Shown here: in pieces, positions 693-62,949 of the stretch
Layout: each line of letters begins with the position of its first letter
Numbering within the stretch: position 1 is the stretch's first letter
NCBI GenBank assembly: GCA_050950025.1
Contig: JBMNGW010000009.1
Span: forward strand, 10,145-74,144
Source: Sphaerochaetaceae bacterium
GTDB taxonomy: Bacteria; Spirochaetota; Spirochaetia; Sphaerochaetales; Sphaerochaetaceae
Reading direction: 5' to 3'
Length of the DNA: 64,000 nucleotides
Position numbers and translations under genes: made by a program
Notes under the pieces: generated by a model
What the model saw: the letters and a program-made list of their open reading frames with translations, nothing else
Told to the model about the DNA's origin: nothing
Databases searched by the model: none

Positions 693-1556
693 CTAGCGGG
701 TCATCATCGTGCCGATGCCTTCATTGGTGAAAATTTCCAACAACATCGAATGGGGAATTCTCCCATCGAGAATGTGAACACTTTCCACCCCTTTTCTAAT
801 ACCGTCCATGCAGCATTGGGTTTTGGGAATCATTCCGCCACTGATTGTTCCATCAGCAATGTAGCGCTCTGCCTCAGCAAGGCTCAGCTGGCTGAGAATG
901 GAAGCAGGATCATCTTTGTCGGCCAAGATACCCTCCACATCGGTCAAAAAGACCAGCTTTTGCGCATTAAGAGCCCCGGCAAGAGCACTGGCAGCATAAT
1001 CGGCATTGATGTTGTAGGTGTTACCACTGTAATCGGTACCAATCGGAGCAACAACGGGCACAAAATCGGCTTTCATCAACGAGTCGAGCAAATCGGTGTT
1101 AACTTTCACCACCTCCCCAACAAATCCCAAATCTTTGCCTCCGGCTAGTTTTTTTCTGGCAATCAAGGTATCACCGTCTTTACCGTTAATTCCCACGGCC
1201 TGAATCCCTTGTCCCTGCAAACTTTGCACCAATTCTTTGGAAATAGAGCCGGAAAGGACCATTTCGGCAATATGGGCTGTCTCGGCATCAGTGACGCGTA
1301 ACCCATCGACAAAATCGCTCTCTTTACCCAATTTTTGCATTAAAGTAGTAATTGAATTTCCCCCGCCATGGACAACTATGGGCCTCATACCGATTCTTTT
1401 CATCATGGCGATGTCTTGGATGATGGACTTTTTCATCTGCTCATCGACCATGGCACTGCCGCCGTACTTAATGACGACCGTTGAGCCGGCAAACCTTCTG
1501 ATATACGGTAGAGCCTCAATTAAAACTTCTGCTTTTTGTATGACATTTTCCATCAT
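693..1556 (-). CDS. argB: acetylglutamate kinase
   Basis: 287-aa ORF with VVIKYGGSAM and VHGGG amino-acid-kinase motifs. Lies in the arg operon. Confidence 0.93.
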   Translation of the reverse strand: MMENVIQKAEVLIEALPYIRRFAGSTVVIKYGGSAMVDEQMKKSIIQDIAMMKRIGMRPIVVHGGGNSITTLMQKLGKESDFVDGLRVTDAETAHIAEMVLSGSISKELVQSLQGQGIQAVGINGKDGDTLIARKKLAGGKDLGFVGEVVKVNTDLLDSLMKADFVPVVAPIGTDYSGNTYNINADYAASALAGALNAQKLVFLTDVEGILADKDDPASILSQLSLAEAERYIADGTISGGMIPKTQCCMDGIRKGVESVHILDGRIPHSMLLEIFTNEGIGTMMTR

Positions 1557-2776
1557 TAACTTCTATATTCTCCATTTATTCTTACATACTCATACGATAA
1601 ATCGCAGCCCCAGGCTGTTGCTTCCCCTGGACCATCTCCGACAACTGCCTCTACTTGAACCACTTTTTGTGTGAGTATCTTTTTGGCCAAATCTTCGTTG
1701 AAAGCAACCGGGACCCCTTTATCTAAAACAACTATCATCCCCGCTTCACTGATATACGCTAAAGATACGCTCTGGGGGTCAAAGTTCGCTCCCGAGTACC
1801 CCATGGCACACAAAAGGCGTCCCCAGTTGGCATCCGCGCCAAAAAAGGCCGTTTTCACTAAGCTGCTGGAAATAGCACTGCGAGCCATCAGCCGAGCATC
1901 TTCTTTTGAGGGGGCCCCTTTGACATGCATCTCAATAAATATGCCTGCCCCCTCACCATCTTTAACAATGCTTTTGGCCAAAGCGGTGTGGACAAACAAA
2001 AAAGCCTCTTCAAACACAGATCGTTGAGGATGATTTTCATCTATAACAGACGTACCGCTAGTCCCGTTGGCTAAAACCAACACCGTATCGTTGGTACTGG
2101 TATCGCCATCGACGCTAATCATATTGTAGGAATCAACAACAGTGCTTTTTAACAGGCTTTGCAAATACGATTGCTTTACAGCCGCATCGGTGGTAATAAA
2201 CGCAAGCATCGTAGCCATATTGGGGTGTATCATTCCCGATCCTTTAGCCATCCCCCCAATTCGCACAGTTTTGCCCTCCAACTCTATTTCCAAAGCCACC
2301 TCTTTAATAAAGGTATCGGTTGTGCAAATGGCTGCAGCTGCTTCACTGGCCGCTTCAACGCTGCTTTGACAATCGGCTAAAGCAGCGGCTATCCCTTTTT
2401 CAATGATTGGCATCGGTAGCGGCACACCAATAACCCCTGTGGAGCAGACCAACACTTGTGTTGGTGCAATCTGTAAGTGGTCTCCCACCAATTCGGCCAT
2501 TTTTTGACAATCAGCATACCCTTGGGTACCGGTGCACGCATTGGCATTGCCGCTGTTGGTTACTAGAGCTTTCACCTTTTGTCCGGAGGCGACAATCTGT
2601 TGGTCCCACACCACAGGAGCCGCTTTTACGACATTGGTGGTAAATGAGCCGGCAACAGTTGCGTCATGGGAGCTGATGAGGACCATAAGATCTTTATTTT
2701 TGCGCTTTAAACCGGCAGCAGTCGATCCGACTGTAAACCCTTTTGCTGCAGTAATTCCACCTGTAATCTGTTTCAT
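1556..2776 (-). CDS. argJ: bifunctional ornithine acetyltransferase / N-acetylglutamate synthase
   Basis: 406-aa ORF with ArgJ-like sequence, including the autoprocessing region MLAFITTDA and the C-terminal YVRINGEYRS. 1-nt overlap with argB. Confidence 0.93.
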   Translation of the reverse strand: MKQITGGITAAKGFTVGSTAAGLKRKNKDLMVLISSHDATVAGSFTTNVVKAAPVVWDQQIVASGQKVKALVTNSGNANACTGTQGYADCQKMAELVGDHLQIAPTQVLVCSTGVIGVPLPMPIIEKGIAAALADCQSSVEAASEAAAAICTTDTFIKEVALEIELEGKTVRIGGMAKGSGMIHPNMATMLAFITTDAAVKQSYLQSLLKSTVVDSYNMISVDGDTSTNDTVLVLANGTSGTSVIDENHPQRSVFEEAFLFVHTALAKSIVKDGEGAGIFIEMHVKGAPSKEDARLMARSAISSSLVKTAFFGADANWGRLLCAMGYSGANFDPQSVSLAYISEAGMIVVLDKGVPVAFNEDLAKKILTQKVVQVEAVVGDGPGEATAWGCDLSYEYVRINGEYRS

Positions 2777-2784
2777 ACACTCTC

Positions 2785-3843
2785 CTACAACGGGAAGGGG
2801 GCAATCATATCGATTCCTGCCGACTCGGCAAATCCCAAAGCAATATTCATATTCTGCACAGCCTGCCCCGCAGCCCCTTTGACTAAGTTATCTAAAGCTC
2901 CGCAGGCAATCAGGCGATTTGTTCTCTTATCGACTGTAAAGCCGATATCAACATAGTTAGAACTTTTTACCCAACGTGTTTGGGGGAAAACTCCCGGTTC
3001 AAGCATCCTAATAAACTGCTCTTTGTCATAATGCTTCTTATAACTGGCCTCAATCTCTGACAGACCGACCCCTTCTTGCAAATTGGCATACACAGTGGCC
3101 AAAATTCCTCTGTTCATCGGCACCAAATGGGGAGTAAATTGGAGAACCACATCTTTAATCGACTTTCCGTGTGTTAAAGAGAGGGCCAATTGTTCTTCAA
3201 TTTCCACAGTGTGGCGATGGGTTCCCACCGCATAGGCCTTCAATGTTTCATTTACTTCGCAATACAGTGAATCGAGCTTCTCTCCCCTTCCTGCTCCCGA
3301 AACTCCGCTTTTAGCATCAATGATGATGCCTTTACTCTCAATTAGCCTGTCATAAAGTAGCGGATGGAGCGTTAAAATAGCGGTGGTGGTGTAACATCCT
3401 GGATTGGCAATTAACCGAGAAGCGGCAATGTCACTGCGATACAGCTCTGACAGACCATAAACAGCTTGGTTTAGTAATTGCGCAGAGCCGTGGGAGGTGT
3501 TATACCACTGTTCATACACTGCCACATCTTTCAATCGATAATCGGCTCCCAAATCAATAATCAGACATTTTTTTAGAATCTCGCTATTGAGCTGGTGGCT
3601 CGAAATACCATGAGGTAATGAAAGAAAAAGTACATCGCAACGATCTGCCATCTGAGCTATGTCGGCAGAGTCGAGCTGTTGATGATATATTTTACCAAAA
3701 TTAGGATAGACACTCTGATAGGGCGAGCCTGCATGACTGTGAGAGCCGCACAGTATGCTTTGAATGTTTGGATGGGCCACCAGCAGGCGCATAAGTTCGC
3801 TTCCTGCATAGCCGGTTGCTCCAATAACTCCAACTGTAATCAT
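2785..3843 (-). CDS. argC: N-acetyl-gamma-glutamyl-phosphate reductase
   Basis: The ORF track starts at 3930, but the family-typical N-terminus MITVGVIGATGYAGSEL begins at ATG 3843. Active-site region NPGCYTT is present. Confidence 0.9.
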   Translation of the reverse strand: MITVGVIGATGYAGSELMRLLVAHPNIQSILCGSHSHAGSPYQSVYPNFGKIYHQQLDSADIAQMADRCDVLFLSLPHGISSHQLNSEILKKCLIIDLGADYRLKDVAVYEQWYNTSHGSAQLLNQAVYGLSELYRSDIAASRLIANPGCYTTTAILTLHPLLYDRLIESKGIIIDAKSGVSGAGRGEKLDSLYCEVNETLKAYAVGTHRHTVEIEEQLALSLTHGKSIKDVVLQFTPHLVPMNRGILATVYANLQEGVGLSEIEASYKKHYDKEQFIRMLEPGVFPQTRWVKSSNYVDIGFTVDKRTNRLIACGALDNLVKGAAGQAVQNMNIALGFAESAGIDMIAPFPL

Positions 3844-4027
3844 GTGTTTATCTCCCTTATACTCGTATTTACTGTATATATATTCATTTTCTTTTTTTGT
3901 ATACCCATTTTCATGCATATTTATGCACAAATAGCCTTTTTGTTCCCGTTATACGCTAAAAAGAGATTTCAAGTCAACCATTTGTCGCATTTGCAACATA
4001 AATAGATGGGACAGGGCCCCTTTTTTA

Positions 4028-4501
4028 GTGTATGATGCCGCTATGAGAAGAGAAGACAGAGCACAAAGTGAAGCTTTTGCCCGCCGCATCTTTGATGAAG
4101 CGGAGTACGGAGTATTATCCCTCGTTGACCAAGATAATCGACCCTACAGCATCCCTGTTTCTCCCGCTATTGAGGGTAACACTATCTACATCCACTCCGC
4201 AGTTGCGGGAAAGAAATTGGACCTTATTGCATCCAACAATTACGTAAGTGTCACCTGTGTGGGAACAACTAAGCTCCTTCCTGCTGAATTTGCCACCTTG
4301 TATGAATCGGCAACAGCGTTTGGTAAAGCTAAAATAGTCACCGACGATGCTGCCAAACGCCAGGGATTAATGGTTATCGCCCGCAAATACTCGCCCGAGT
4401 ACACAGAAGAAGCCCAACAATACATCACCAAAAAAAATGCTCTTGTAACCCTGATTCAAATTGAAATAGAAACCCTGAGTGCCAAAGCACGCCTAATATA
4501 A
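4028..4501 (+). CDS. pyridoxamine 5'-phosphate oxidase family protein, Nim-like (nitroimidazole-reductase family)
   Basis: 157-aa ORF collinear with the NimA architecture (MRRxxR..., PYxIPVS, IYxHSAxxGxKxD, KYSP). The start could be the internal Met at 4043. Confidence 0.7.
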   Translation: MYDAAMRREDRAQSEAFARRIFDEAEYGVLSLVDQDNRPYSIPVSPAIEGNTIYIHSAVAGKKLDLIASNNYVSVTCVGTTKLLPAEFATLYESATAFGKAKIVTDDAAKRQGLMVIARKYSPEYTEEAQQYITKKNALVTLIQIEIETLSAKARLI

Positions 4502-5090: not shown

Positions 5091-7400
5091 ATGGAAGGAA
5101 CAACCCGCTTTGACATTCAGTCGATGACTGATCAACAAATCGAACAACTAATGGGGCAGCTTAACGTCGGCCTTTCTGTCTCTGAAGCCAGAGACCTGCA
5201 AAATCGTATTCTTGGTCGCAGTCCCACATTAGCCGAGCTAATTTTGTTCGGTATTGAAGGCTCGGAACACTGTTCGTACAAAAGCAGTCGCCCCTACCTC
5301 AAACTTTTCCCCACCGACGGAGCTGATGTTATCATCGGAGCCAAAGAAGATGCCGGGATTGTCCGCATCTGTTCAGACAACCAAGGCAACGGTTATGGTG
5401 TTGTCGTGAGCCACGAAAGTCACAACCACCCCTCCCAACTTGTCCCTTACGAAGGGGCTGCCACCGGTATTGGGGGAAACATTCGTGATGTCTGTTGTAT
5501 GGGAGGCTCTGTGATTGCCGTCGGCGGTGATTTTCGCTTTGGTAATCTAGATATTCCATACAACCGTTATTTAGCCGACCAAGTCGCAGAAGGAGTTGCT
5601 GGGTATGCTAATCCCACCGGAGTTCCCGTTATTGCAGCTAATGTGCAGTTTGACCCTTCGTATAATGATAACTGCTTGGTAACAGCCGTCACATTGGGCA
5701 TTGTGCGAGAAAAGGAGATTATCCACTCCTATGCTCCATCCAATGCTGATGGGTATGATTTAATTTTAGTGGGCAAGAGCACTGATAACAGCGGTTTTGG
5801 CGGAGCAAGTTTTGCCAGTTTCGATATCTCTTTGGCCGATGAACATGTGAATAAAGGGGCCAACCAAGAACCCAATGCATTTTTGGGACGACTGTTGATG
5901 CGCGCAACTGATGAGCTGGTAGCTCTCCTTAGTGCCAAAGGTTTAATTGATCAAGTTGCCTGCAAAGATTTGGGAGCAGGCGGCATCGCCTGTGCCACGG
6001 TGGAGTTGGCTGAGGGGGGAGGCTACGGAGCTTTTGTTAATGTCGATTTAGTTCACAAAGCCAGCGATGAGCATCCCCCGTATGTAATTCTTTGCTCCGA
6101 AACGCAAGAGCGGTATCTGTGGGCGGCACCTAAGACCATTACCCCGTTGATTCTTGACCATTTCAACTCCACGTTTGCTTTGAGTGAAGTCTCCCATAAA
6201 GCTCAGGCAACTATCATCGGTCATATTACCAACTCGACTAACTATATTGTCGTTTCCGAAGGACAAGTACTCATTGATGCACCGGCAAGTGAAATCACCA
6301 AAGGCTTTTTGTACCACAGACCCTTAGGTGAGCCTCTTGCGCCTCAAGATGATCCAGTTTTGCCGCTTCCAACAGATTTGAAAAGCGTGTGGTTAGCTAT
6401 TTTGAGCCACCCCAATGTAGCTAGCAAAGAGGCTATTTACAACCGCTTTGATCGCCATGTGCAAGGTGATGTCATCCAACCTCTGGAATCTGCACAAGCA
6501 GGCATTATTACCCCCTTTAACAACCAAGAGTTTCCCCAGGAGATTCAGCAGGTGGGAGTAACTCTTAGCTGTAGTCAAAACCCCCGTTTTAACGCTATCG
6601 ATGCCTACCAAGGGGCCTATTTAGCAGTCTTACACTCTTTTGCCAATACGGCTGCCAGCGGAGCACAAGCGATTGCTATCAGCGACTGTCTTTGCTATGG
6701 GAATCCTGAAAATCCTGTTGCAATGCGACAGTTCGCCGACGGGGCTAAAGGGGTGGCCGATGCTGCTACCGATTTGGGTGTTCCGGTAATAGCAGGCAAT
6801 GTTTCGCTGTACAACGAATCTAAAGATTCGGCAATTGTTCCCAGCCCCATGATTGCTATGATTGGCAAATTTGACGATGTGCAAACAGCCTTACCGATGC
6901 AATTGCAGCAAGCTGGATCAACATTGCTCCTCATTGGCCAAATTGCAAACGAGTGCGGAGGAAGCATCTATTGGGACCTCTATGACAAAAGGGGAAGTTC
7001 CCTACCCCAAGCTAATGCTTCAGAGATGAAAAAAGCTGCCGCCGCCATTGCAAAATTGGCCGCAACAAAAAAGATTGCCAGCTGCCGCACCATTGCTGAA
7101 GGGGGCTTAGCTACTGCAGTAAGCCTCATGGCCTTTGGCTCAGAGTTTGGCTGTGCATTGAGCACTCAAGAAACTCTGCGCGATGATCAGTATCTCTTTA
7201 GCGAAAGTTTGGGCTTTATTGTGGAAGTGGAAGCTGAGCATCTGCAAACAGTTCAACAGGTTATAGAGCAAGCTAAGCTGCCGTACACCCATATCGGTAC
7301 AACAACTGCCAAGCAGAGCATTACTTATAAGGATATACATATTGACCTCATTGAAGCTCAAAGCCTCTATAACACCGCTTTGACGACAATGTTGCAGTAG
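5091..7400 (+). CDS. purL: phosphoribosylformylglycinamidine synthase subunit PurL (small PurL type)
   Basis: 769-aa ORF with EHCSYKSS, SHNHPS and duplicated AIRS/AIRS_C-like halves. GGAG RBS at 5081-5084. Confidence 0.93.
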   Translation: MEGTTRFDIQSMTDQQIEQLMGQLNVGLSVSEARDLQNRILGRSPTLAELILFGIEGSEHCSYKSSRPYLKLFPTDGADVIIGAKEDAGIVRICSDNQGNGYGVVVSHESHNHPSQLVPYEGAATGIGGNIRDVCCMGGSVIAVGGDFRFGNLDIPYNRYLADQVAEGVAGYANPTGVPVIAANVQFDPSYNDNCLVTAVTLGIVREKEIIHSYAPSNADGYDLILVGKSTDNSGFGGASFASFDISLADEHVNKGANQEPNAFLGRLLMRATDELVALLSAKGLIDQVACKDLGAGGIACATVELAEGGGYGAFVNVDLVHKASDEHPPYVILCSETQERYLWAAPKTITPLILDHFNSTFALSEVSHKAQATIIGHITNSTNYIVVSEGQVLIDAPASEITKGFLYHRPLGEPLAPQDDPVLPLPTDLKSVWLAILSHPNVASKEAIYNRFDRHVQGDVIQPLESAQAGIITPFNNQEFPQEIQQVGVTLSCSQNPRFNAIDAYQGAYLAVLHSFANTAASGAQAIAISDCLCYGNPENPVAMRQFADGAKGVADAATDLGVPVIAGNVSLYNESKDSAIVPSPMIAMIGKFDDVQTALPMQLQQAGSTLLLIGQIANECGGSIYWDLYDKRGSSLPQANASEMKKAAAAIAKLAATKKIASCRTIAEGGLATAVSLMAFGSEFGCALSTQETLRDDQYLFSESLGFIVEVEAEHLQTVQQVIEQAKLPYTHIGTTTAKQSITYKDIHIDLIEAQSLYNTALTTMLQ

Positions 7401-7410
7401 GAAGGGTCCC

Positions 7411-8475
7411 ATGAAGCAAGAAAAAAGCATCAGTTATAAAGATTCGGGAGTTGATATCACAGAAGGCAATTTGGCTGTAGAGCTGATGAAAGAGGCCGTG
7501 GCTTCCACCTATTCGCCCCGCGTCATCGCTCCTATTGGCAGTTTTGCCTCGATGTATGATATCAGTACCCTAGTCAAAGAGTATAAACATCCTGTGTTGG
7601 TCCAAAGTGTGGACGGAGTGGGCACCAAAGTCACGGTTGCCCGCATGGTTGGCGATTTCTCTACTATCGGAGAGGACCTCTTTTATGCCTGTGCCAACGA
7701 TATAGCGGTCCACGGAGCCAAGCCGTTGACCTTCCTTGATTATATTGCCAATGACGTACTTGATGCTCGTGTGGTCGCTAGCATTGTTAAAGGCATTGCC
7801 AAAGCCTGTGTTGAGTGCTCAACATCGTTAGTCGGTGGCGAAACAGCCGAAATGCCGGGAGTCTACTTAGCAGGTGAGCATGATTTAGTGGGACTGATTA
7901 CCGGCATAGTTGAAAAAGAGGATTTGATTCAAGGCCACAACGTCCAAAAAGGGAACGCTATTATTGGCATCGGATCTAGCGGTTTACACACCAACGGTTT
8001 TTCTTTGGCGCGCAAAATTTTGTTTGAGCACGGTAAACTGACAGTGGATCAACCGCTGTATACAGACCCCAGCCACACAATAGGAGCGGCTCTTTTAAAA
8101 CCGCATGCCAATTATATCAACGGCGTTCAAGAGCTTTTGGCTAAAGGGGCCCCCATTCTTTCAATGGCCCATATTACCGGCGGCGGCTTAGTGGAAAATG
8201 TACCGCGAGTTATTCCTCAAGGATTAAGCGCCCGTTTCTACCCTTCACGATGGAGCGCCCCGCCTATTTTCCAAGCCTTACAGCAGATTGGGAACGTCAA
8301 CTTTAGTGAAATGTACCGAACATTTAATATGGGAATCGGGCTCGTCATTATTGTGGAGCAAAGCGATAAAGAATCTGTTTTAAAGATGGCACAACAGGCC
8401 TTTAATCTTCCTGTGTGGGAAGTTGGCGAAATTGCGCAAGGAGAAAAAACATGGATCGAGGGGGTCACCGTATGA
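7411..8475 (+). CDS. purM: phosphoribosylformylglycinamidine cyclo-ligase (AIR synthetase)
   Basis: 354-aa ORF with SYKDSGVDI, DGVGTK and ITGGG motifs. Confidence 0.93.
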   Translation: MKQEKSISYKDSGVDITEGNLAVELMKEAVASTYSPRVIAPIGSFASMYDISTLVKEYKHPVLVQSVDGVGTKVTVARMVGDFSTIGEDLFYACANDIAVHGAKPLTFLDYIANDVLDARVVASIVKGIAKACVECSTSLVGGETAEMPGVYLAGEHDLVGLITGIVEKEDLIQGHNVQKGNAIIGIGSSGLHTNGFSLARKILFEHGKLTVDQPLYTDPSHTIGAALLKPHANYINGVQELLAKGAPILSMAHITGGGLVENVPRVIPQGLSARFYPSRWSAPPIFQALQQIGNVNFSEMYRTFNMGIGLVIIVEQSDKESVLKMAQQAFNLPVWEVGEIAQGEKTWIEGVTV

Positions 8476-9731
8476 AAGCGCGCTTAGCAGTCATTGAATT
8501 TCCCGGAACAAATGATATCACCACAGTGGTAAAAGCAGCAAAAAAAGCCAATATTGAGGCAGTTGTGTACCGTTGGAATGAAAAAGAGCTCGATTTTTCC
8601 TCCTTTGATGCCTATGTGCTCGCCGGTGGATTTTCATTTCAAGATCGCAGCCGAGGGGGCATCATTGCCGCTTTGGATCCGCTGATGGAAAAGCTCAAAT
8701 CTGAAGATGCTAAAGGCAAGCCCATTTTGGGAATCAACAATGGAGCCCAGATTCTCCTTGAAGCAGGCCTTGTTCCCGGCTTTGATCGCTATGAAGTAGC
8801 CGGCTCTTGCGCCCCTAATTTGCAACTGGTAGACAATACTGTACTCGATGCTAGTTTCTACCATGCCACCGTCTTTGTTAAACCGCTGAACAGCTCCCTG
8901 TTTTTTGAAAATACCGTTATCGAAGGGTATATCGGCACAACCGAAGGACGCTTTGTTTTTGAACCCGAAGTGCTGAAAATGCTCTATGAAAATAAAGTGG
9001 CTATGCTGCAGTACTGCGACTTTGAAGGTACTGTCGCTCAAGAATTTCCCACCAATCCCACTGGATCGATGGACAACCTGGCAGCAATAGGCAACCACAA
9101 AGGCAATGTGTTGGCCTCCATGGTCCAACCAAAACCCCCTGCCCTTTCTCAAATGCTACTGGCCATGGTAACAAACAAGAAGCTAAAGAGCTCCTTTGTA
9201 CCGTTTACGCTGCCTTCCAGAGCACCGAGTAAGAGTATTCGCCAAGCAACCCAAAAAGATGCCGAGCTTATCGTAGGAACAGCCATCACTGACGACACCT
9301 CTTTGAGTGTTGAAAAACGGCTGCACTTAATGGGCATTGCTGTTCGGATACAGCGCTTTATCCACTGGGAAATTGGCAAACAAGAAAACGCCTCTGCCAA
9401 ACAATGGGAAGCTGATGTAGCTACAGCCAAAAAGAGCTTTGAGCTGTATAACCACAACAAAGAGTATCTGCTTCAAACACTTCCCTCCAGCGATCTGGCC
9501 TTTTTAACCCGCTGCTCTGCTACTGAAGATGCATTAGGAAGGAAAACGGCCCAAGTGCTTCAAAAGCACTATGGTATTACGACATTTGCCTCTCTTAGGC
9601 ACAGCGTGTTGTGGCTTTTAACAGTCGATGAAAACGCCACTTTCGATAAAGAGGAAGTGATTGAAAAAGCTCTTGCTACCAATATCTTCAATAACCCAAT
9701 CAGTCACTGGAGAGAACATTATGAGCATTGA
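8472..9731 (+). CDS. purQ: PurQ-like (class I glutamine amidotransferase fold, triad degenerate) fused to two PurS-like repeats
   Basis: The family-typical start MKARLAVIEFPGTND is at ATG 8472 (4-nt overlap with the purM stop); the ORF-track start at 8415 is rejected. The N-terminal ~235 aa align to PurQ but read GINNGAQ instead of GxCNGFQ. The C-terminal ~155 aa (from about 9255) contain two PurS-like units ending NPISHWREHY. Confidence 0.8.
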   Translation: MKARLAVIEFPGTNDITTVVKAAKKANIEAVVYRWNEKELDFSSFDAYVLAGGFSFQDRSRGGIIAALDPLMEKLKSEDAKGKPILGINNGAQILLEAGLVPGFDRYEVAGSCAPNLQLVDNTVLDASFYHATVFVKPLNSSLFFENTVIEGYIGTTEGRFVFEPEVLKMLYENKVAMLQYCDFEGTVAQEFPTNPTGSMDNLAAIGNHKGNVLASMVQPKPPALSQMLLAMVTNKKLKSSFVPFTLPSRAPSKSIRQATQKDAELIVGTAITDDTSLSVEKRLHLMGIAVRIQRFIHWEIGKQENASAKQWEADVATAKKSFELYNHNKEYLLQTLPSSDLAFLTRCSATEDALGRKTAQVLQKHYGITTFASLRHSVLWLLTVDENATFDKEEVIEKALATNIFNNPISHWREHYEH

Positions 9732-10704
9732 CAGAGATTCCTACCGCTCAATTATTCGCAACCATCTTCATCAGGGAGTCAGCCATACCGATTTTGCTTT
9801 ACCGGAGCATTACAGCGGTAAAGTACGCGAGCGCTACCGCCTTGATGAGCAGCGGTTGCTCATTATTACCACCGACCGCCAAAGTGCTTTTGACCGTATT
9901 TTGGCTACTATTCCCTTTAAAGGAGCGGTGTTAAACCTCGTTTCTGCTTGGTGGTTTGAGCACACTTCCCCCATTATTGCCAACCACCTACTGCAAATTC
10001 CCCACCCCCAAATAGCGGTGGTCAAAGAGTGTTCTGTCTTTCCAATTGAATTTGTGGTTCGGGGGTATATTACCGGCACTACCAACACCTCACTGTGGAC
10101 AGTTTATAACAGCGGCCAAAAAGAGTACTGTGGCCATGTGTTACCCGAAGGGTTGGTGAAAAACCAGAGACTTGCTAAACCCCTGCTCACTCCCACCACT
10201 AAAGAAAAGACGCACGATCGTCCCATTTCACCTGCTGAGATTGTACAAGAGGGGTGGATGAGCCAAGCCGATTGGGACGAAGCAGCAGCTAAAGCGCTGG
10301 AACTGTTTGCCTACGGTCAAAAAACAGCTTTGGAACATGGGTTAATCTTAGTCGACACAAAGTATGAATTTGGCAAGGATAAAGAGGGAAATATTATCCT
10401 GATTGATGAAATTCATACTCCCGACTCCTCCCGCTATTGGCTGGCCGACAGCTATGAAAGCCGCTTTGCATCCCAACGGGAACCTGAGTCGATCGACAAA
10501 GAGTTCCTCCGTCTTTGGTTTGCCCAAAACAGCGATCCTTACCATGATAAAGAGTTGCCTGTGGCTCCTGAAGAGTTGGTAGTTGAACTGTCGCTGCGGT
10601 ACATCATTTTGTATGAGATGATAACCGGCAAACCATTTCCTTTCCCCAGCGGCAGCTCAATTGAGCAGGCCGTATCAGATATTATAAAGGAGGCATCAAA
10701 GTGA
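9721..10704 (+). CDS. purC: phosphoribosylaminoimidazole-succinocarboxamide synthase (long form)
   Basis: ATG 9721 (MSIDRDSYRS...) is chosen over the 9661 track start. SAICAR synthetase motifs YSGKVRERY, TDRQSAFD and LVDTKYEFG are present. Confidence 0.9.
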   Translation: MSIDRDSYRSIIRNHLHQGVSHTDFALPEHYSGKVRERYRLDEQRLLIITTDRQSAFDRILATIPFKGAVLNLVSAWWFEHTSPIIANHLLQIPHPQIAVVKECSVFPIEFVVRGYITGTTNTSLWTVYNSGQKEYCGHVLPEGLVKNQRLAKPLLTPTTKEKTHDRPISPAEIVQEGWMSQADWDEAAAKALELFAYGQKTALEHGLILVDTKYEFGKDKEGNIILIDEIHTPDSSRYWLADSYESRFASQREPESIDKEFLRLWFAQNSDPYHDKELPVAPEELVVELSLRYIILYEMITGKPFPFPSGSSIEQAVSDIIKEASK

Positions 10705-11099
10705 ACAGTGAAGTCATTATAATTATGGGTTCTGAAGCAGATCGTCCTTTTGTCGCTTCTATCACTGCCGAACTAACACTCCTGGGCATCTCATATAAAG
10801 AGTATGTCGCTTCGGCTCATAAACAGCCGCTAAAGGTGTTGCAGATTCTTCAGGAACACGAAAAACAGTCTCGGCTTGTTTACATAACGGTTGCCGGTCG
10901 TTCCAACGCTCTTTCGGGCTTTGTGGCAGCCAATTCAATTGCTCCGGTTCTGGCCGTCCCCCCGTTTGCCGATAAGCTCGATATGCTGGTTAATATCCAT
11001 TCAACACTGCAAATGCCTTCCAATGTACCGGTAATGACAGTCCTTGATCCGCGCAATGCTGCTTTGGCTGTCCAAAGAATTTTGGGAGTTGCCCAATGA
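10701..11099 (+). CDS. purE: AIR carboxylase, class II PurE-like
   Basis: GTG start with AAGGAGG RBS at 10687-10693. IIIMGSEAD N-terminus. Contains SAHK (class II signature) rather than the class I SAHR. No purK in the operon. Confidence 0.85.
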   Translation: MNSEVIIIMGSEADRPFVASITAELTLLGISYKEYVASAHKQPLKVLQILQEHEKQSRLVYITVAGRSNALSGFVAANSIAPVLAVPPFADKLDMLVNIHSTLQMPSNVPVMTVLDPRNAALAVQRILGVAQ

Positions 11100-12520
11100 G
11101 CGGAATTGTTGGCATCATTGGTTCTTCTGAGGTTGCCACTCAGCTCTACGACAGTCTTATCCAATTGCAACACCGCGGCCAAGATGCAGCTGGTATCACC
11201 ACCTGCGATCAGCGGTTCCACTTTAAAACCGGTTTGGGGTTTGTCCGCGATATCTTTTTAGAACGGCACATCAAGCGGCTTAGCGGAACGATGGGAATAG
11301 GCCATACCCGCTACTCCACCAACGGAGATGCAAAAAATAGTGACTCTATTCAACCTTTTTGGAACAGCGCCCCTTTTGGCATCTCATTTGCTCACAGCGG
11401 GGCTATTGTCAATGTCAAAACCCTTACTGAGATGGTCATTAACCAACGGCGCCGTTACTTAAACACCTCTACTTGTAGCGAAGTATTAATGCAATTATTT
11501 TCCTCTTCGCTTGAAACAGGGCTTATTACGGATGCCAAGCGCCCCTTTTTTGATATCGTAACAGAATCGGTTGCTGAATTGATGCAATTGGCCCAAGGTT
11601 CTTACTCTGTTATCTCCATCATCAAAGACAAAGGGCTGGTAGCCTTCCGTGATCCTCATGGTATTACCCCTTTGGTGTTAGGAGAGCGCCAAGGTCCGGA
11701 TGGGACAAGCGAATATATTGTCTCTAGTGAAAACACGATGTTTTACATGCTTGGCTATACCCTGCTGCGCGATATTCACCCCTCCGAAGTCGTCTTTATT
11801 GAACCCGATGGCACACTGCATTCGACCATCATAGGCAAAAAAGAATTTAATCCCTGCATTTTTGAATATGTGTATTACTCGCGCCCCGATGCGATGGAGA
11901 ATTCTATCAGTGTTTATCGCAGCCGCCTGCGAATGGGAGAGAACCTAGGCAAAAGATGGAAACAACAGTACGGCGATTTACGCCCTGATGTTATCATTCC
12001 TGCCCCGGCTACGGCCAACACTATGGCCTTGGCAATGGCAAAAGAGTTACAGACCAACTACTCAGACGGATTGTACAAAAATCCTTTTATCGGGCGCACT
12101 TTTCTAATGCCCGATCAACAACAGCGCAGTCAATCGGTACGCTACAAACTAGTTCCTCAGCAACTGGAAATTCGCAACAAAACGGTCATGATAGTCGATG
12201 ATAGCATTGTACGGGGAACCACCAGTCGTGAAATTGTCAGTATGGTTCGCAACTTTGGTGCTAAAGGGGTCTATTTTGTCAGTGCTTGCCCTCCGGTGAT
12301 ACAACCTTGTTTCTACGGAATCGACATCCCTTCAAAAGAAACTCTTATTGCAGCCAATAACACCGTTGAACAGATACGCAACTACCTTCAAGCCGACATC
12401 CTCTTTTTCCAAGACTTAGAGGATTTAATAGAAGCAGTTACCCGCAAAGGGGAACACAACATCGACATGCCCTGCCATGCTTGTTTGGGCGGTCCCTACT
12501 GTCAAGGAGGGCCGAAGTGA
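11096..12520 (+). CDS. purF: amidophosphoribosyltransferase, Fe-S type, with a non-canonical Ntn glutaminase site
   Basis: 474-aa ORF collinear with PurF (GHTRYST, PRTase loop MIVDDSIVRGTT, C-terminal CHAC Fe-S ligands). The N-terminus is MSGIVG rather than MCGIVG. Confidence 0.88.
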   Translation: MSGIVGIIGSSEVATQLYDSLIQLQHRGQDAAGITTCDQRFHFKTGLGFVRDIFLERHIKRLSGTMGIGHTRYSTNGDAKNSDSIQPFWNSAPFGISFAHSGAIVNVKTLTEMVINQRRRYLNTSTCSEVLMQLFSSSLETGLITDAKRPFFDIVTESVAELMQLAQGSYSVISIIKDKGLVAFRDPHGITPLVLGERQGPDGTSEYIVSSENTMFYMLGYTLLRDIHPSEVVFIEPDGTLHSTIIGKKEFNPCIFEYVYYSRPDAMENSISVYRSRLRMGENLGKRWKQQYGDLRPDVIIPAPATANTMALAMAKELQTNYSDGLYKNPFIGRTFLMPDQQQRSQSVRYKLVPQQLEIRNKTVMIVDDSIVRGTTSREIVSMVRNFGAKGVYFVSACPPVIQPCFYGIDIPSKETLIAANNTVEQIRNYLQADILFFQDLEDLIEAVTRKGEHNIDMPCHACLGGPYCQGGPK

Positions 12521-14439
12521 AACATCTGCTAGTACTTGGCAGCGGAGCCAGAGAACACGCTATTATTACTCAATTGGCCTATTCAAATACGCTGAGAGCT
12601 GAGCATACAGCCCTGCATGGACTGGGAACCACTAACAACCCCGGCATCAGTGCCATCTGCCAAGATTCGGGGGGAACTTATGCTATTGGTCCCATTACCG
12701 ACAGCTCTTTTGTAGTTAAGCATTGTCTGAAACTCAACATCTATTTGCTGATTATTGGCCCGGAGGCCCCTTTGGAAGCAGGAGTAGCCGATGCGGCTAG
12801 GAAAGCTGGCATATTGGTTATGGGACCGGGGAAAGCTGGGGCACGCTTAGAAAGTAGTAAATCTTTTACCCGGGAGTTTCTTAATACCCATCTTCCTTTC
12901 TCTTCGCCCACCTATTACACCATCAGAACGATGGAGCAAGCCAAAGAGGCTCTTAGGTCATTAGCCGAATCGTATGTGGTAAAAGCTGATGGCTTAGCAG
13001 GGGGTAAAGGGGTACTGATTTGGGGAGAGCACTTATTTAGTGATCAAGAAGCATTGGCCCAATGTGCAACTTTTTTGAGCAAAAACGGGCAGTGCGTCAT
13101 TGAACAAAAACTTACCGGCCAAGAATTCTCCCTTTTAACGCTTACCGATGGTACCACCGCTGTCCATTTACCTGCTTTACAGGACCATAAACGGGCCTTT
13201 GACAATGATGAAGGGCCCAATACGGGGGGAATGGGCAGTTACACCGACAAAGACGGTACGCTCCCTTTTCTTACTGCGTATGAGGAGCAAGTGGCTAAAG
13301 CCTATAACGAAGCCGTTATTAAAGCGATGGACTTTCCTTTTAACGGGGTTCTGTACGGAGGGTACATGGCAACAGCCGAAGGGGTGAAAATTATCGAATT
13401 CAACACCCGCTTTGGCGATCCCGAGGCTTTGAATTTGATGCCGCTTCTTAAAAGTGACGGCATTGAACTTTTCGAAAGGGTAGCTAACGGCACCCTTGCC
13501 GATTATCACCTGCAGATGGACAGTCGCCCCTCATTAGCTTTATACATCGTCCCCCAAGCTTACCCCACTTCTTCTACTGTGGGCGATGAGCTAAGCTTGG
13601 CTCCAAATGAGAAAGAGGTGAGCCTTTACTACGGCTCAGTTGATGAAAAAGAGGGCAAACTCTTTAGTGCCGGCTCGCGCAGTGTGGCGTATGTTGCAAT
13701 TGCCGACACTTTGCAACAGTGTCGCCTCTTGTTGGAAAAACCCCTTTCTCAAGTCAAAGGGAATTTTCGCTGGCGCACCGATATTGGTTCAAAAGAGGTG
13801 TTGCGTCAAAAAATAGAGCATATGCACGTATTACGAAAACCGCTGAGAATAGCTGTTTTAGGTTCTACCAACGGCACTGACATGGACTATATTGTCCAAG
13901 AGATTGCCAAAGGGACAGTCCCTGCAGAAATTGCCGTGGTGATTTCCAATGTGTGTGAGGCTGGTATTTTACAAAAAGCCAAAGCGTATGGGATTGCCCA
14001 CTTTTGCGTCGACCAAAAAGGGAAAGAGCGCGATGCTATAATCTCGGCTCTGTGCAAAGAGCATGCTGTCGATTCAATCCTTTTAATTGGGTATATGCGT
14101 ATTTTAAGTCCCCAATTTTGCCACGACTGGGAAGGTAGAATTATTAATGTTCATCCCTCCTTGCTTCCCGATTTTGCTCAAACAATGGACCAAGACACCC
14201 ATGCTCTGGCACTGAAGCGATATCGGCAAACGGGTAACGATCGCACAGGTTGCACAGTCCATATTGTGACTAGTGAATTGGATAGCGGTCCGATTTTAGT
14301 GCAAAAAGCGCTACGCATTGCTTCTGACGATACTCCTCAATCGCTGAAAAAACGGGTCCAAGTGCTGGAAGGAGAGGCTTTGAGTGAAGCGTTGAAGCGT
14401 GTATATCCTGTTGGCGGTAATTTTAACAAACTGCTTTAA
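12517..14439 (+). CDS. purD: fusion protein: phosphoribosylamine-glycine ligase (PurD) plus phosphoribosylglycinamide formyltransferase (PurN)
   Basis: GTG 12517 overlaps the purF stop (GTGA), with AGGAGG at 12506-12511. The N-terminus VKHLLVLGSGAREHAI and an ATP-grasp core mark PurD. From about 13840, LRIAVLGSTNGTD...INVHPSLLP...TGCTVHIVTSELDSGPIL marks PurN. Confidence 0.88.
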   Translation: MKHLLVLGSGAREHAIITQLAYSNTLRAEHTALHGLGTTNNPGISAICQDSGGTYAIGPITDSSFVVKHCLKLNIYLLIIGPEAPLEAGVADAARKAGILVMGPGKAGARLESSKSFTREFLNTHLPFSSPTYYTIRTMEQAKEALRSLAESYVVKADGLAGGKGVLIWGEHLFSDQEALAQCATFLSKNGQCVIEQKLTGQEFSLLTLTDGTTAVHLPALQDHKRAFDNDEGPNTGGMGSYTDKDGTLPFLTAYEEQVAKAYNEAVIKAMDFPFNGVLYGGYMATAEGVKIIEFNTRFGDPEALNLMPLLKSDGIELFERVANGTLADYHLQMDSRPSLALYIVPQAYPTSSTVGDELSLAPNEKEVSLYYGSVDEKEGKLFSAGSRSVAYVAIADTLQQCRLLLEKPLSQVKGNFRWRTDIGSKEVLRQKIEHMHVLRKPLRIAVLGSTNGTDMDYIVQEIAKGTVPAEIAVVISNVCEAGILQKAKAYGIAHFCVDQKGKERDAIISALCKEHAVDSILLIGYMRILSPQFCHDWEGRIINVHPSLLPDFAQTMDQDTHALALKRYRQTGNDRTGCTVHIVTSELDSGPILVQKALRIASDDTPQSLKKRVQVLEGEALSEALKRVYPVGGNFNKLL

Positions 14440-27130: not shown

Positions 27131-27936
27131 TGTCATCTTTTTTAGACCCCCTACCCCGCGTTATTGCCCATCGGGGCGACAGTCATAATCATCCCGAAAA
27201 TACGGTGCCCGCTTTTATAAGCGCGTTAAAGATGGGGATCGATGTCATTGAAACCGATGTCCATCTGACCAAAGATAACCAGATTGTCATTTGGCACGAT
27301 CCCACTTTGGAACGCAACACCAACGGACACGGAAAAATTGAAGATTATACGCTAGCAGAGCTAAAAACCTTTGATGCCGGGTATATGTTTAGCCCTGATG
27401 GGGGAATTACGTATCCCTATCGGGGCACAGGGGTGGTGATGGCAACACTGCAAGAGGCTTTGGAAGCCTGTCCCACGGTACGTTTCAATGTTGATCTTAA
27501 AACAAAAGATCGGAGAATTGTATCTGAATTTGTCCACGTTGTTACTGCTAAGCAGGCCCGCTTGCGAGTTTTATGTGCCAGCTTTCATAAAAGCAACTTA
27601 GATTTAATTCGAAAAACCGATCCCGACATCCTTACCAGTTTAACAACGATTGAAGTACTTCCCCTGCTCCTTAAGCAAAAAATGGGGCTGTTGGGTTCTG
27701 CTTCCAAGCAGAAAAGGAAAATGATTTTTCAAGTGCCGGTGCGCCAGTGGGGCATTGAAGTCATTACCTCCCGTTTTATCGAGGAGTTTCACCGTTTGGG
27801 GGCAATTATCCAAGTGTGGACTATTAACGAGGAAGAGGAGATGAGACGTCTATTTGCCATGGGAGTCGACAGCATTATGACTGACAACCCCGCTTTGGCT
27901 TTAGAAGTAGCTTCTCAAATGGGCCTTATAAATTAG
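27127..27936 (+). CDS. glycerophosphodiester phosphodiesterase family protein
   Basis: 269-aa ORF with VIAHRGDS, IETDVHLTKD and WTINEE motifs. Confidence 0.85.
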   Translation: MMSSFLDPLPRVIAHRGDSHNHPENTVPAFISALKMGIDVIETDVHLTKDNQIVIWHDPTLERNTNGHGKIEDYTLAELKTFDAGYMFSPDGGITYPYRGTGVVMATLQEALEACPTVRFNVDLKTKDRRIVSEFVHVVTAKQARLRVLCASFHKSNLDLIRKTDPDILTSLTTIEVLPLLLKQKMGLLGSASKQKRKMIFQVPVRQWGIEVITSRFIEEFHRLGAIIQVWTINEEEEMRRLFAMGVDSIMTDNPALALEVASQMGLIN

Positions 27937-28736
27937 TCGGAAGCCTCGGGTGTCCCCGCTTCCACTTTTTTAAAGTACTTGTAGGTACTTACCTTCAGCT
28001 CATTAGCTGCCTCTTCGTCACAGACAACCAGACAGTTGCTGTGGCTTTGCAAAATGCTGCAGGGCCACATCTGAGTCATCGGTCCTTCAATCATCGCCTG
28101 CAATGCCCGAGTCTTGCCATACCCATTTACTAATATGACAATCTGTTGGGCATCCATAATAGTTTTGATGCCAACAGTAACAGCCAGTTCGGGAACTTTA
28201 TTAATATCATCGTTAAAAAAACGGGAGTTTGCCGCTCGGGTATCGATTGTCAGTCTTTTCACCCGCGTTTGCGAATCGAAAGAGGAAAAGGGTTCATTAA
28301 AAGCAATATGACCATCTGATCCGATGCCTCCCAAAAAAAGATCGACTCCGCCAAAAGAGGCAATAGTTTTCTCGTACTCATAACACTCTTGGATAATATC
28401 AGGGGCATTGCCGTTTGGAATATGAATGTTTTCTTTGGGAATGTCGATATGCTTAAAAAAATGCTCTTCCATGAAGCGGTGATAGCTTTGTGGATGGTCT
28501 TCGGCCAAACCGATGTACTCATCCATATTAAATGTCACCACATGCTTAAATGATAAACCATCAGTTTGATGAAGTTTGATTAGATGGCGGTAAATTCCTA
28601 TGGGAGTGGATCCGGTAGGCAAACCAAGAACAAAAGGATCAGAAGAAGTTGGTCGATGGGCCCTGATGGCTCTACCTACATAACGGGCAGCCCATTCACT
28701 CATAGATTCATAGTCGTTTTCAATGATTAATCGCAT
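27933..28736 (-). CDS. nagB: glucosamine-6-phosphate deaminase
   Basis: 267-aa ORF with LGLPTGSTP, FNMDEY and GIGSDGHIAFNEP. Confidence 0.93.
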   Translation of the reverse strand: MRLIIENDYESMSEWAARYVGRAIRAHRPTSSDPFVLGLPTGSTPIGIYRHLIKLHQTDGLSFKHVVTFNMDEYIGLAEDHPQSYHRFMEEHFFKHIDIPKENIHIPNGNAPDIIQECYEYEKTIASFGGVDLFLGGIGSDGHIAFNEPFSSFDSQTRVKRLTIDTRAANSRFFNDDINKVPELAVTVGIKTIMDAQQIVILVNGYGKTRALQAMIEGPMTQMWPCSILQSHSNCLVVCDEEAANELKVSTYKYFKKVEAGTPEASD

Positions 28737-60431: not shown

Positions 60432-61928
60432 TCAGACCTTCTTTGCCAAATACTCGTTCATAGCCTTGGCTGCTTTACGTCCTTGACCCATAGCCAGAAT
60501 AACGGTGGCGGCTCCCAACACAATATCTCCTCCGGCAAAAACTCCCTTCATCGAAGTAGCACAGGTCTCTTCATCAACAATGATGTTCCCTCTGCGGTTG
60601 ACTTCTAGGCCTTTGGTTGTTTTCTCAATCAAAGGGTTGGAGTCGTTGCCGATGGCGACAATGACGGTATCAAAATCGTAGACTTTTTCCGATCCCGGAA
60701 TTTCAACAGGAGAGCGGCGTCCCGATGCATCAGGTTCGCCCAATTCGCAGGTTATCAACTCCACACCGGTAACTCTCCCTTTCTCATCACCAAGAATGCG
60801 CAAAGGAGAATGAAGGTAGAGAAACTGGACTCCCTCTTCTTTGGCATGGGCCACTTCCTCGCGGCGGGCAGGCATTTCACTGTCGGTTCTGCGATAGACT
60901 ATTGTGACTTCATCAGCTCCAAGGCGCAAAGCGGTGCGGGCTGCGTCCATTGCGACGTTCCCCCCTCCAAAAACGGCAACTTTTTTCGAGGTATACAACG
61001 GAGTTCCCGCTTTCATTTTATCGTAGGCCTTCATCAAGTTGCTGCGGGTCAAATATTCGTTGGCACTAAAGACTCCCACAAAGTTTTCACCCGGAATATT
61101 GAGGAATTTAGGTAAGCCGGCTCCCGATCCGATGAAAATGGCATCAAAGCCTTCTTTATCAAATAAATCGGCTAAAGTGGCGGTTCTGCCTACAAGGAAG
61201 TTTCTCTCAATTTTCACTCCCATGGCTTTAAGAGCATCAAGCTCCTCTTGGACTATCGACTTAGGAAGGCGGAATTCGGGAATACCGTAGACAAGCACCC
61301 CTCCCGCTTTATGCAAAGCTTCGAACATGACTACTTCATGCCCTTCTCTTCGTAAGTCGGCTGCCGCTGTCATAGAAGCGGGGCCGCTGCCCACTACAGC
61401 TGCTTTTTTGCCGCTAGGTGGTGCAATTTCAGGATTTTTGCGAGCGTTGTTTTTCGATTCCCAATCGGCAACATAGCGCTCAATGCGCCCGATATTAACT
61501 GCCTTCTCGACACTTTTTAATGATTTACCCACAGTACAGGTCAGCTGACACTGAACCTCCTGAGGGCACACCCGTCCGCAAATGGCGGGAAGCATCGAGC
61601 TCTCTTTAATAACACCAACTGAACCGGCAAAATCACCTTCGGCCGCCAGTTGAATGAATTTGGGAATATTGATCCCTACCGGACAGCCTTTAATACAAGG
61701 AGCATTGGCACACTGAATACAGCGCAAAGCTTCAACTTTTACTTGAGCTTCAGTATAACCAAGGGCTACTTCGTCCATATTCTCACGACGTACGGCTGGG
61801 TCTTGAGAAGGCATATCCTGAATAGGAATCAGCAACCTTTCTTTGACTTTGAGCGTTTGTCCTTCGTATCCGCTTAACAGCTCTTTCGCTGCTTGATCAA
61901 GAGTCTCTAGCTCGATATGTTCTGTCAC
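60432..61928 (-). CDS. NADPH-dependent glutamate-synthase-beta-like / NfnB-like Fe-S flavoprotein
   Basis: GTG 61928 overlaps the upstream stop (GTGA). Two Cys clusters (CIQCANAPCIKGCP, CGRVCPQEVQC) and GSGPA and GGGNVAMD dinucleotide folds. Confidence 0.85.
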   Translation of the reverse strand: MTEHIELETLDQAAKELLSGYEGQTLKVKERLLIPIQDMPSQDPAVRRENMDEVALGYTEAQVKVEALRCIQCANAPCIKGCPVGINIPKFIQLAAEGDFAGSVGVIKESSMLPAICGRVCPQEVQCQLTCTVGKSLKSVEKAVNIGRIERYVADWESKNNARKNPEIAPPSGKKAAVVGSGPASMTAAADLRREGHEVVMFEALHKAGGVLVYGIPEFRLPKSIVQEELDALKAMGVKIERNFLVGRTATLADLFDKEGFDAIFIGSGAGLPKFLNIPGENFVGVFSANEYLTRSNLMKAYDKMKAGTPLYTSKKVAVFGGGNVAMDAARTALRLGADEVTIVYRRTDSEMPARREEVAHAKEEGVQFLYLHSPLRILGDEKGRVTGVELITCELGEPDASGRRSPVEIPGSEKVYDFDTVIVAIGNDSNPLIEKTTKGLEVNRRGNIIVDEETCATSMKGVFAGGDIVLGAATVILAMGQGRKAAKAMNEYLAKKV

Positions 61929-62773: not shown

Positions 62774-62949
62774 GCGAACCTCCAAAAGCCTCTGTATTGG
62801 TGAATAAGAAAGAAATTCCCTTTTACACCCTTCGGCCATTGTACCACAGTCTTACATTTTGAGCAATTGTCGAGACCTTTTCTTGAGGGTACCTACGCCT
62901 TTCCCTCTGTTGCTTTGTAGGATATCATGCACATAAGAGGAGACAAAAC

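Follow-up and report, generated by a model that had tools for sequence, protein, structure and literature searches.

We analysed a 64,000-nucleotide stretch of DNA from a Sphaerochaetaceae bacterium (the window; positions 10,145 to 74,144 of contig JBMNGW010000009.1, assembly GCA_050950025.1), which carries an operon for purine biosynthesis (pur). The subject of this report is the purF gene of this operon, whose product is homologous to amidophosphoribosyltransferase, together with the nearby purQ gene. In both products, residues that normally form the glutaminase site are replaced. The features of purF, numbered from the first nucleotide of the window, are as follows.

11096-12520, plus strand: purF, a full-length amidophosphoribosyltransferase homologue of 474 amino acids with a degenerate N-terminal nucleophile (Ntn) glutaminase site
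11099-11101, plus strand: codon 2, AGC, encoding Ser at the position of the nucleophile Cys1
11309-11317, plus strand: Arg72-Tyr73-Ser74, equivalent to Arg73-Tyr74-Pro75 of Escherichia coli PurF, with Arg and Tyr kept and Pro replaced by Ser
11396-11404, plus strand: Ser101-Gly102-Ala103, equivalent to the oxyanion-hole block Asn101-Gly102-Asn103 (Ser101 codon, 11396-11398)
11474-11476, plus strand: Cys127 (TGT), at the position of Asp127, the residue that binds the alpha-amino group of glutamine
11855-12484, plus strand: span of four candidate [4Fe-4S] cysteine codons, placed by alignment with Bacillus subtilis PurF 1ao0 (Cys254, 11855-11857; Cys405, 12308-12310; Cys460, 12473-12475; Cys463, 12482-12484)
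12197-12223, plus strand: loop DDSIVRGTT for binding phosphoribosyl pyrophosphate (PRPP), residues 368-376, intact and identical to the motif

The protein is recognizable as a PurF over its whole length. The TIGR01134 profile scores 407 bits against it (curated cutoff 350) and covers residues 3-468, and phmmer aligns the E. coli PurF structures 1ecb, 6czf and 8w7d with it end to end (E ~1e-120; 8.5e-121 for 1ecb). Among characterised canonical PurFs the E. coli enzyme is the most similar, and both have the two-domain architecture. With canonical PurF (EC 2.4.2.14; 1ecb and 1ao0) the window protein also has in common the PRPP loop, Arg73/Tyr74, the operon slot and four cysteines; these, Cys254, 405, 460 and 463, align with Cys236, 382, 437 and 440 of 1ao0 and are the predicted ligands of the iron-sulphur cluster. 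An initial annotation, made from the sequence alone, had listed Arg73, the phosphoribosyltransferase (PRTase) loop and these cysteines as conserved, and the alignments to 1ecb and 1ao0 agree with it.

The open reading frame begins at 11096 with ATG AGC GGA ATT GTT GGC, giving M-S-G-I-V-G; the Ser in place of Cys1, already described in the initial annotation, is borne out by the sequence and by alignment with E. coli PurF. The start codon overlaps the purE stop as ATGA, and the end of purF overlaps the start of the purD-purN gene as GTGA; the two overlaps suggest translational coupling. In archaea, errors in start-site assignment have been documented that conceal the PurF cysteine (PMC3261824), and a mis-called start, or a sequencing or assembly artefact, could in principle give such an N-terminus here. 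Read in frame from the preceding stop, however, the upstream sequence (SAQCCFGCP KNFGSCP) contains no ATG, GTG or TTG and no Cys-Gly-[IV], so the protein has no propeptide, as had been claimed. In B. subtilis-type PurF, in contrast, a propeptide is cleaved to expose Cys1, whereas the window PurF starts directly with Met-Ser-Gly. In addition, three other, independent assemblies (NCBI GCA_964516405.1, Logan SRR31061295 and ENA ERZ27247346) carry the gene without a single nucleotide difference, with 99.9-100% identity in the DNA around it, and the genes upstream of it are also found, at 99.97% identity, in a fourth (JGI 3300044603). Because the three assemblies are identical and the same Ser occurs in three related but diverged lineages (see below), an error in codon 2 is excluded. 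The earlier judgement that sequencing error was unlikely can thus be put more strongly: the artefact explanation is refuted, and we give it a negligible chance.

Several further residues of the glutaminase pocket are changed. FAHSGAIVN of the window protein lies on LAHNGNLTN of E. coli (Asn101 to Ser, Gly102 kept, Asn103 to Ala), NTSTCSE lies on NTTSDSE (Asp127 to Cys), and GHTRYST aligns with GHVRYPT, in which Thr76 is kept. The codons for Ser101 and Cys127 fall exactly where they had been placed before; the replacements of Asn103 by Ala and of Pro75 by Ser are additions to that list. Compared with canonical PurF, then, the window protein is without Cys1, Asn101, Asn103, Asp127 and Pro75, and judging from these residues it is unlikely to hydrolyse glutamine.

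Conservation was assessed over 121 alignment columns that are invariant across 117 canonical relatives, 67 of which lie in the C-domain. The window PurF departs from nine of these columns, seven in the N-domain (C2S, P74S, N101S, N103A, D127C, R191T and G230S) and two of 67 in the C-domain (F261Y and I337L). None is altered in the closest canonical proteins (the canonical sisters within P0001-P0008), and in the three relatives with the same Ser, 6-10 N-domain columns and one C-domain column are altered. The Cys1 position is occupied by Cys in 117/117 canonical relatives and by Ser in the window protein; Arg73, Pro75, Asn101, Gly102 and Asn103 are likewise invariant among the 117, and Asp127 is present in 116. 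The substitutions are thus concentrated in the glutaminase pocket, beyond chance.

Loss of Cys1 is also rare on a wider scale. When PurFs were clustered at 50% identity and 150 cluster representatives compared, the five key positions read Cys/Arg/Asn/Gly/Asp in 134, and the only full-length proteins without Cys1 were P0363 and P0307. Departures were noted in P0253, P0255, P0322 and P0307: some of these keep Cys1 and have Ser at Asn101 (AHSGHL) or at Asp127, and in one the nucleophile position is Gly and Arg73 is His. Such pocket positions of PurF are less universal than textbook alignments imply.

Serine-type relatives, orthology and selection

An MCG start is found in 117 of the 120 best PurF homologues. 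The exceptions, P0004, P0005 and P0007, are labelled by NCBI as proteins of Sphaerochaetaceae metagenome-assembled genomes (MAGs) and are 68-72% identical to the window PurF. All three begin with MSG (formylmethionine coming from GTG in one), with AGC or AGT as the Ser codon; codon 2 is AGY in all four Ser-type proteins, and AGY to TGY is one step. In the three relatives Arg73 is Lys, Asn101 is Cys or Ser, and Asn103 is Ala, Gly or Arg. Taken across the four proteins, with the window first, the residues are R/K/K/K at Arg73, T/T/N/A at Thr76, A/A/G/R at Asn103 and C/D/D/D at Asp127, and His100 is Leu in one. The codon at position 101 is AGC in the window and TCC, TCG and TGT in the relatives. 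These differing pocket residues, together with the different paths taken by codon 101, look like relaxed constraint and not like a new, conserved catalytic design.

A relocated nucleophile, which the initial annotation had raised as an alternative, finds no support in this comparison. Cys127 would be the candidate; it occurs in the window lineage alone, Asp127 is retained by the other three Ser-type proteins, and the four do not share the same pocket residues, all of which make a nucleophile at this position unlikely.

The window PurF could alternatively be a Cys-less paralogue with an accessory role, either ammonia-dependent or regulatory, in a genome that has a canonical purF elsewhere. There are precedents in archaea: in PurF' of Crenarchaeota and in Mlab_0150 of Methanocorpusculum the N-terminal Cys is replaced by Ala or Val and, in Mlab_0150, by Ser. 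The hypothesis put forward for these proteins is that they are PRPP aminotransferases dependent on ammonia (Brown et al. 2011, PMC3261824). One archaeal homologue of the MSG type appeared in our wider sample. This unrelated PurF-like protein, P0363 (locus L028, ENA ERZ3979734, gene 942-2339), begins with MSGIAGIV and has Leu/Ser/Ala/Asn at Arg73/Asn101/Gly102/Asp127. Its gene adjoins LSM and ribosomal L37e genes, an archaeal context outside any pur cluster, and it is probably of the archaeal Ser-variant kind described in PMC3261824.

The paralogue explanation gains from these cases, and from the fact that our view of this genome spans 64 kb. It has to contend, however, with the position of the gene. 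The order purL-purM-purQ-purC-purE-purF-purD/N is the same in the window, in the Ser-type relatives L017 and L020, in the canonical sister genomes HGW-Spirochaetae-2 and -4 (L001 and L002) and in Marinimicrobia. The window purF thus lies exactly where the sister genomes have their canonical purF, which makes it a positional orthologue and not an obvious paralogue. The PurFs of L001 and L002 are of the MCG type and 74% identical to the window protein, which is nested among such canonical orthologues, and no second PurF-like sequence was found within the 64 kb window or on the contigs of the relatives. The comparison with orthologues that had been proposed as a check of paralogue status thus favours orthology. 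Moreover, a simple duplication of purF would leave the loss of the PurQ triad in the same operon (see below) unexplained. Taken together, these observations make a paralogue unlikely, and it is the main open alternative.

The tree is consistent with this assignment. In bootstrapped neighbour-joining trees of PurF, from which the archaeal PurF' sequences were left out, the four Ser-type proteins and P0001-3 form a group with 100% support inside the canonical PurFs of Sphaerochaetaceae, and the three Ser-type relatives cluster at 100%. Like the archaeal PurF' the window protein has no N-terminal Cys, but its nearest relatives are the Sphaerochaetaceae PurFs (74% identity, with the 100% nesting found in these PurF'-free trees) and not the PurF' cluster. 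It also differs from the archaeal extra paralogues in being bacterial and a positional orthologue, with no canonical copy in 64 kb and a PurQ without its triad beside it.

Between the Ser-type lineages, synonymous sites are saturated and non-synonymous divergence is low. The ratio of non-synonymous to synonymous rates (dN/dS) is 0.058 for the N-domain and 0.056 for the C-domain in the closest Ser-type pair (L017 vs L026); most pairs are saturated at synonymous sites, and the ratio is usable for the closer pairs only, as an upper-bound-like value. The N-domain of the Ser-type proteins is somewhat more diverged than that of canonical pairs. Both domains of PurF are thus under strong purifying selection, and purF is not a pseudogene. 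The N-domain is clearly not in decay and is still needed, though not for its catalytic residues.

The PurQ triad and its PurS-like extension

The second altered protein is encoded by purQ. Its changes were absent from the initial annotation and are central to the interpretation given below.

8472-9731, plus strand: purQ, 419 amino acids, a PurQ-type glutamine amidotransferase with its triad lost and a fused C-terminal tandem PurS-like module
8730-8750, plus strand: GINNGAQ, with Asn89 (8736-8738) in place of the nucleophile Cys of G-x-C-N-G-x-Q (GICNGAQ in relatives)
9120-9140, plus strand: MVQPKPP, with Gln219 and Lys221 in place of the triad His and Glu (canonical MPHPER)
9207-9731, plus strand: C-terminal extension with two beta-alpha-beta repeats, PurS-like and resembling large formylglycinamidine ribonucleotide (FGAM) synthetase

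The TIGR01737 profile scores 133.8 bits against the window PurQ, under the cutoff of 177.8. Its predicted structure (predicted local distance difference test, pLDDT, 86.8) nevertheless has Thermotoga maritima PurQ, 3d54_D, as the best match in the Protein Data Bank (PDB; Foldseek, TMt 0.77); with the full-length model, the matches are to the amidotransferase domain only. The protein has the same sequence as P0121, a Sphaerochaetaceae MAG protein that NCBI names PurQ, and only 41% identity to its nearest relative. Alignment to 3d54_D and to relatives places Asn-Gln-Lys where the triad Cys-His-Glu is expected. The triad is present in 118 of the 120 best PurQ relatives, the exceptions being the window protein (as P0121) and P0134, which has Ser-His-Glu. 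The PurQ of L017, encoded beside the Ser-type PurF P0005, has the same motifs as P0134, with Cys replaced by Ser. Among these 120 relatives, loss of the triad is confined to genomes with a Ser-type PurF, and the decay of PurQ appears to have followed the loss of Cys from PurF.

The extension comprises 175 residues, is common to the PurQs compared (those of L001, L017, L020 and the Marinimicrobia loci) and is modelled with a pLDDT of 90.7. Foldseek finds its best matches in the large FGAM synthetases 1t3t and 6jt7 (E 5e-6, ~155 columns), and the single PurS structures 1vq3 and 2cuw match one repeat (~75 columns, TMt 0.54-0.59). Sequence comparisons are weaker: the Pfam PurS family reaches E 0.024, for a relative only, hhalign against an approximate B. 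subtilis PurS sequence gives E 0.06, and a profile search against PDB sequences gave no matches for the extension. We read the extension as a fused tandem PurS module, and the match would fall on the N-terminal domain of large PurL. Such a fusion would explain the absence of a purS gene from the operon, and also why a catalytically dead purQ cannot simply be lost. The PurQ-PurS-PurS fusion is widespread, as shown by lengths of 410-440 amino acids in most of the 120 best relatives.

Alternatively, both proteins might be catalytically dead pseudoenzymes, or the operon might be in early decay, with purines salvaged and neither phosphoribosylamine (PRA) nor FGAM made by the purF and purQ products. 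Catalytic residues are indeed gone from two enzymes; scores under the curated NCBIfam cutoffs are obtained for PurQ, PurE and the PurN domain; and PurQ is somewhat more diverged than expected, its identity ratio of 0.63-0.67 vs 0.74-0.77 in canonical pairs amounting to modestly faster divergence than in the other pur proteins. However, all seven reading frames are intact and translationally coupled, the catalytic motifs of the PRTase are intact, and PurL, PurM, PurC and PurD exceed their cutoffs. Damage is found at glutaminase sites only, which is not the pattern of random decay, and dN/dS stays at ~0.06 in both PurF domains across lineages that have diverged to synonymous saturation after the loss of Cys. 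These observations suggest that decay is an improbable explanation.

Ammonia as the probable nitrogen donor of the pathway

The consequences of losing Cys1 have been described for laboratory mutants. According to the accounts in PMC3261824 and PMC12017579, E. coli PurF with C1A or C1S has no detectable glutamine activity and still uses ammonia (Mei & Zalkin 1989), and the former source reports the same outcome for replacement of Cys1 in AsnB (Boehlein et al. 1994). PRA synthesis from ammonia is also implicated in vivo, as summarised in PMC12017579. The E. coli C1S mutant has the same Cys1 to Ser change as the window PurF, and the ammonia-dependent PRA synthesis kept in the mutant is what we propose for the window protein. 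The E. coli proteins are laboratory single mutants, whereas the change in the window is natural, fixed across lineages and accompanied by further pocket changes.

We infer that the glutaminase activities of both PurF and PurQ have been lost and that these two steps of the operon probably run on free ammonia. The loss of the PurF pocket is targeted, no replacement design is conserved, the PRTase half is intact and the loss of the PurQ triad is parallel; for these reasons the best-supported reading is that both amidotransfer steps would use ammonia. In this proposal, which we consider probable though well short of settled, the window purF encodes the pathway's own PurF with an inactivated glutaminase site, making PRA from PRPP and free ammonia, and PurL would likewise act on ammonia. 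The suggestion of the initial annotation that PurF is glutaminase-inactive and may use ammonia is thus supported by the sequence and strengthened by the triad loss in PurQ. Mechanistically, the PRTase half, the iron-sulphur site and the two-domain fold would be maintained around a dead N-terminal glutaminase site, and ammonia would probably enter through the emptied glutamine pocket and the interdomain channel. PurQ would be retained as a scaffold bearing the fused PurS-like module, with PurL using free ammonia. In general terms, the former glutaminase domains may persist as channel, scaffold or regulatory modules.

A different possibility is that PurF is still a glutamine amidotransferase with altered chemistry, in which Ser1 serves as the Ntn nucleophile (as in penicillin acylase) or Ser/Cys101 or Cys127 takes its place. 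Ser is kept at position 2 in all four lineages, a small nucleophilic residue (Ser or Cys) is found at 101 in every case, and the N-domain is under purifying selection, all of which would fit such an enzyme. On the other hand, the residues that bind glutamine vary across the four Ser-type proteins, and the fact that PurQ has lost its triad in parallel suggests that glutamine use was abandoned and not that a new chemistry arose. E. coli PurF C1S and AsnB C1S, moreover, lose glutamine-dependent activity, as recounted in PMC3261824. We therefore regard altered chemistry as improbable, to about the same degree as decay of the operon.

Several observations weigh against ammonia-dependent synthesis and temper our confidence in it. 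Other Ntn hydrolases use Ser as a bona fide nucleophile. Ser101 occurs with Cys1 retained in two of the 150 diverse PurFs, and Ser127 in one. Because each change is also seen in PurFs that retain Cys1, the Asn101 and Asp127 changes alone would not prove inactivity, and the loss of Cys1 bears most of the weight. L020, the third Ser-type lineage with its PurQ in view (its PurF being P0007), has an intact PurQ triad, and since it keeps a canonical PurQ next to a Ser-type PurF, the use of glutamine has not been given up uniformly. The window PurF joins the three Ser-type relatives in 68% of bootstrap replicates, and in 48% on the C-domain alone; a single origin of the Cys loss is likely but not certain. 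The archaeal PurF' are always paralogues, as Cys-less or Ser-variant forms found alongside a canonical PurF (PMC3261824), and the present genome may have a canonical purF or purQ outside the 64 kb covered here. The support from habitat, finally, comes from a single sample, from a type of site at which ammonia is expected to be high.

That sample, from which the relative L019 derives, was taken from a landfill leachate well. Landfill-leachate habitats are typically rich in ammonia. The Ser-type lineages may thus be linked to ammonia-rich habitats, in which loss of glutaminase activity would be neutral or advantageous. A broader proposal is that the whole de novo purine pathway has been converted from glutamine to ammonia in a free-living bacterial lineage, stepwise, with PurF changing before PurQ; we see about as much reason to accept this as to doubt it. 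The stages of PurQ would be represented by an intact triad in one sublineage, Cys replaced by Ser in another and loss of the whole triad in the window. The dead domains would be kept as an ammonia entry channel or scaffold, making the system the bacterial equivalent, across a whole pathway, of carbamoyl phosphate synthetase I (CPS I), and the change would probably be an adaptation to ammonia-rich anoxic habitats that spares the ATP cost of glutamine synthesis.

CPS I retains an inactive glutaminase-like domain, with its catalytic Cys replaced by Ser, and uses free ammonia. The likeness lies in the retention of a dead glutaminase domain by an ammonia-using enzyme, as proposed for the window PurF; CPS I differs in being an unrelated synthase with a class I (triad) amidotransferase, in being eukaryotic and mitochondrial, and in belonging to another pathway. 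With the PurLQS complex (T. maritima 3d54) and large PurL (1t3t), the window has in common a small PurL, the PurQ fold and, in the PurQ extension, the PurS-like fold of large PurL. In contrast to PurLQS, its PurQ has Asn-Gln-Lys and not Cys-His-Glu, and PurS is fused in tandem to PurQ and not encoded by a separate gene. The herpesvirus vGAT/v-FGAM-synthase pseudoenzymes are retained homologues of FGAM synthase without activity that have a non-metabolic role in the viral tegument, whereas the window proteins sit in an intact biosynthetic operon.

In textbooks, glutamine is the obligate in vivo donor for PurF and PurLQS, and their ammonia-dependent activities are mostly regarded as side reactions seen in vitro. 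In the incomplete body of literature that we searched, neither a bacterial orthologous PurF without its Cys nor a PurQ lacking the triad in a pur operon was described. Three aspects seem to be new: an operon-resident, orthologous bacterial PurF is affected, the triad of a second amidotransferase of the pathway is lost as well, and relatives show graded stages. If the proposal is correct, ammonia-driven purine synthesis can sustain an organism, and the relatives would offer graded natural intermediates for studying ammonia channels and the reuse of dead glutaminase domains. Homology labels such as 'amidophosphoribosyltransferase' and 'PurQ', as given by NCBI, may then hide a changed nitrogen donor, which would be important when the metabolism of landfills, digesters and other ammonia-rich systems is modelled.

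Other genes of the operon and window

The remaining genes of the operon are listed here with their profile matches.

5091-7400, plus strand: purL, small PurL, a subunit of FGAM synthase (TIGR01736, 592 bits vs cutoff 526)
7411-8475, plus strand: purM (TIGR00878, 353 bits vs cutoff 236), overlapping purQ as ATGA
9721-10704, plus strand: purC (NF009251, 412 bits vs cutoff 371)
10701-11099, plus strand: purE, 132 amino acids (PF00731, E 1e-35; TIGR01162, 114.5 bits, under the cutoff of 149.6)
12517-14439, plus strand: purD-purN fusion, 640 amino acids (TIGR00877, 345 bits vs cutoff 288, and TIGR00639, 146 bits)

The purD-purN fusion is kept in spirochaete relatives, and its PurN domain scores under the curated NCBIfam cutoff. 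The short PurE carries the motifs SAHK and AGRSNALSG, which we take to mark class II PurE (aminoimidazole ribonucleotide carboxylase, as in Treponema denticola); this reading fits the absence of purK from the operon.

Among the window open reading frames of at least 150 amino acids with a family match, no other glutamine amidotransferase, stand-alone glutaminase or ammonium transporter was found. The minus strand encodes NagB, glucosamine-6-phosphate deaminase (27933-28736; TIGR00502, 396 bits), for which the ammonia-fixing direction is possible in principle. At 60432-62839, also on the minus strand, neighbouring genes resemble a glutamate-synthase small subunit (GltA-type) and a dihydroorotate-dehydrogenase-like electron-transfer subunit; this arrangement is typical of NfnAB-type oxidoreductases, and neither product is a glutamine amidotransferase. 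A 906-residue helicase-like protein (28940-31660, plus strand) has partial matches to IGHMBP2 family helicase, anti-phage PLuB and ProA, all far under their cutoffs. Upstream of the pur operon lies an argB-argJ-argC cluster (693-3930, minus strand), and between the two is a NimA-family reading frame (4028-4501, plus strand) whose product is nitroimidazole-reductase-like, with a PNPOx fold, and scores well under the cutoff.

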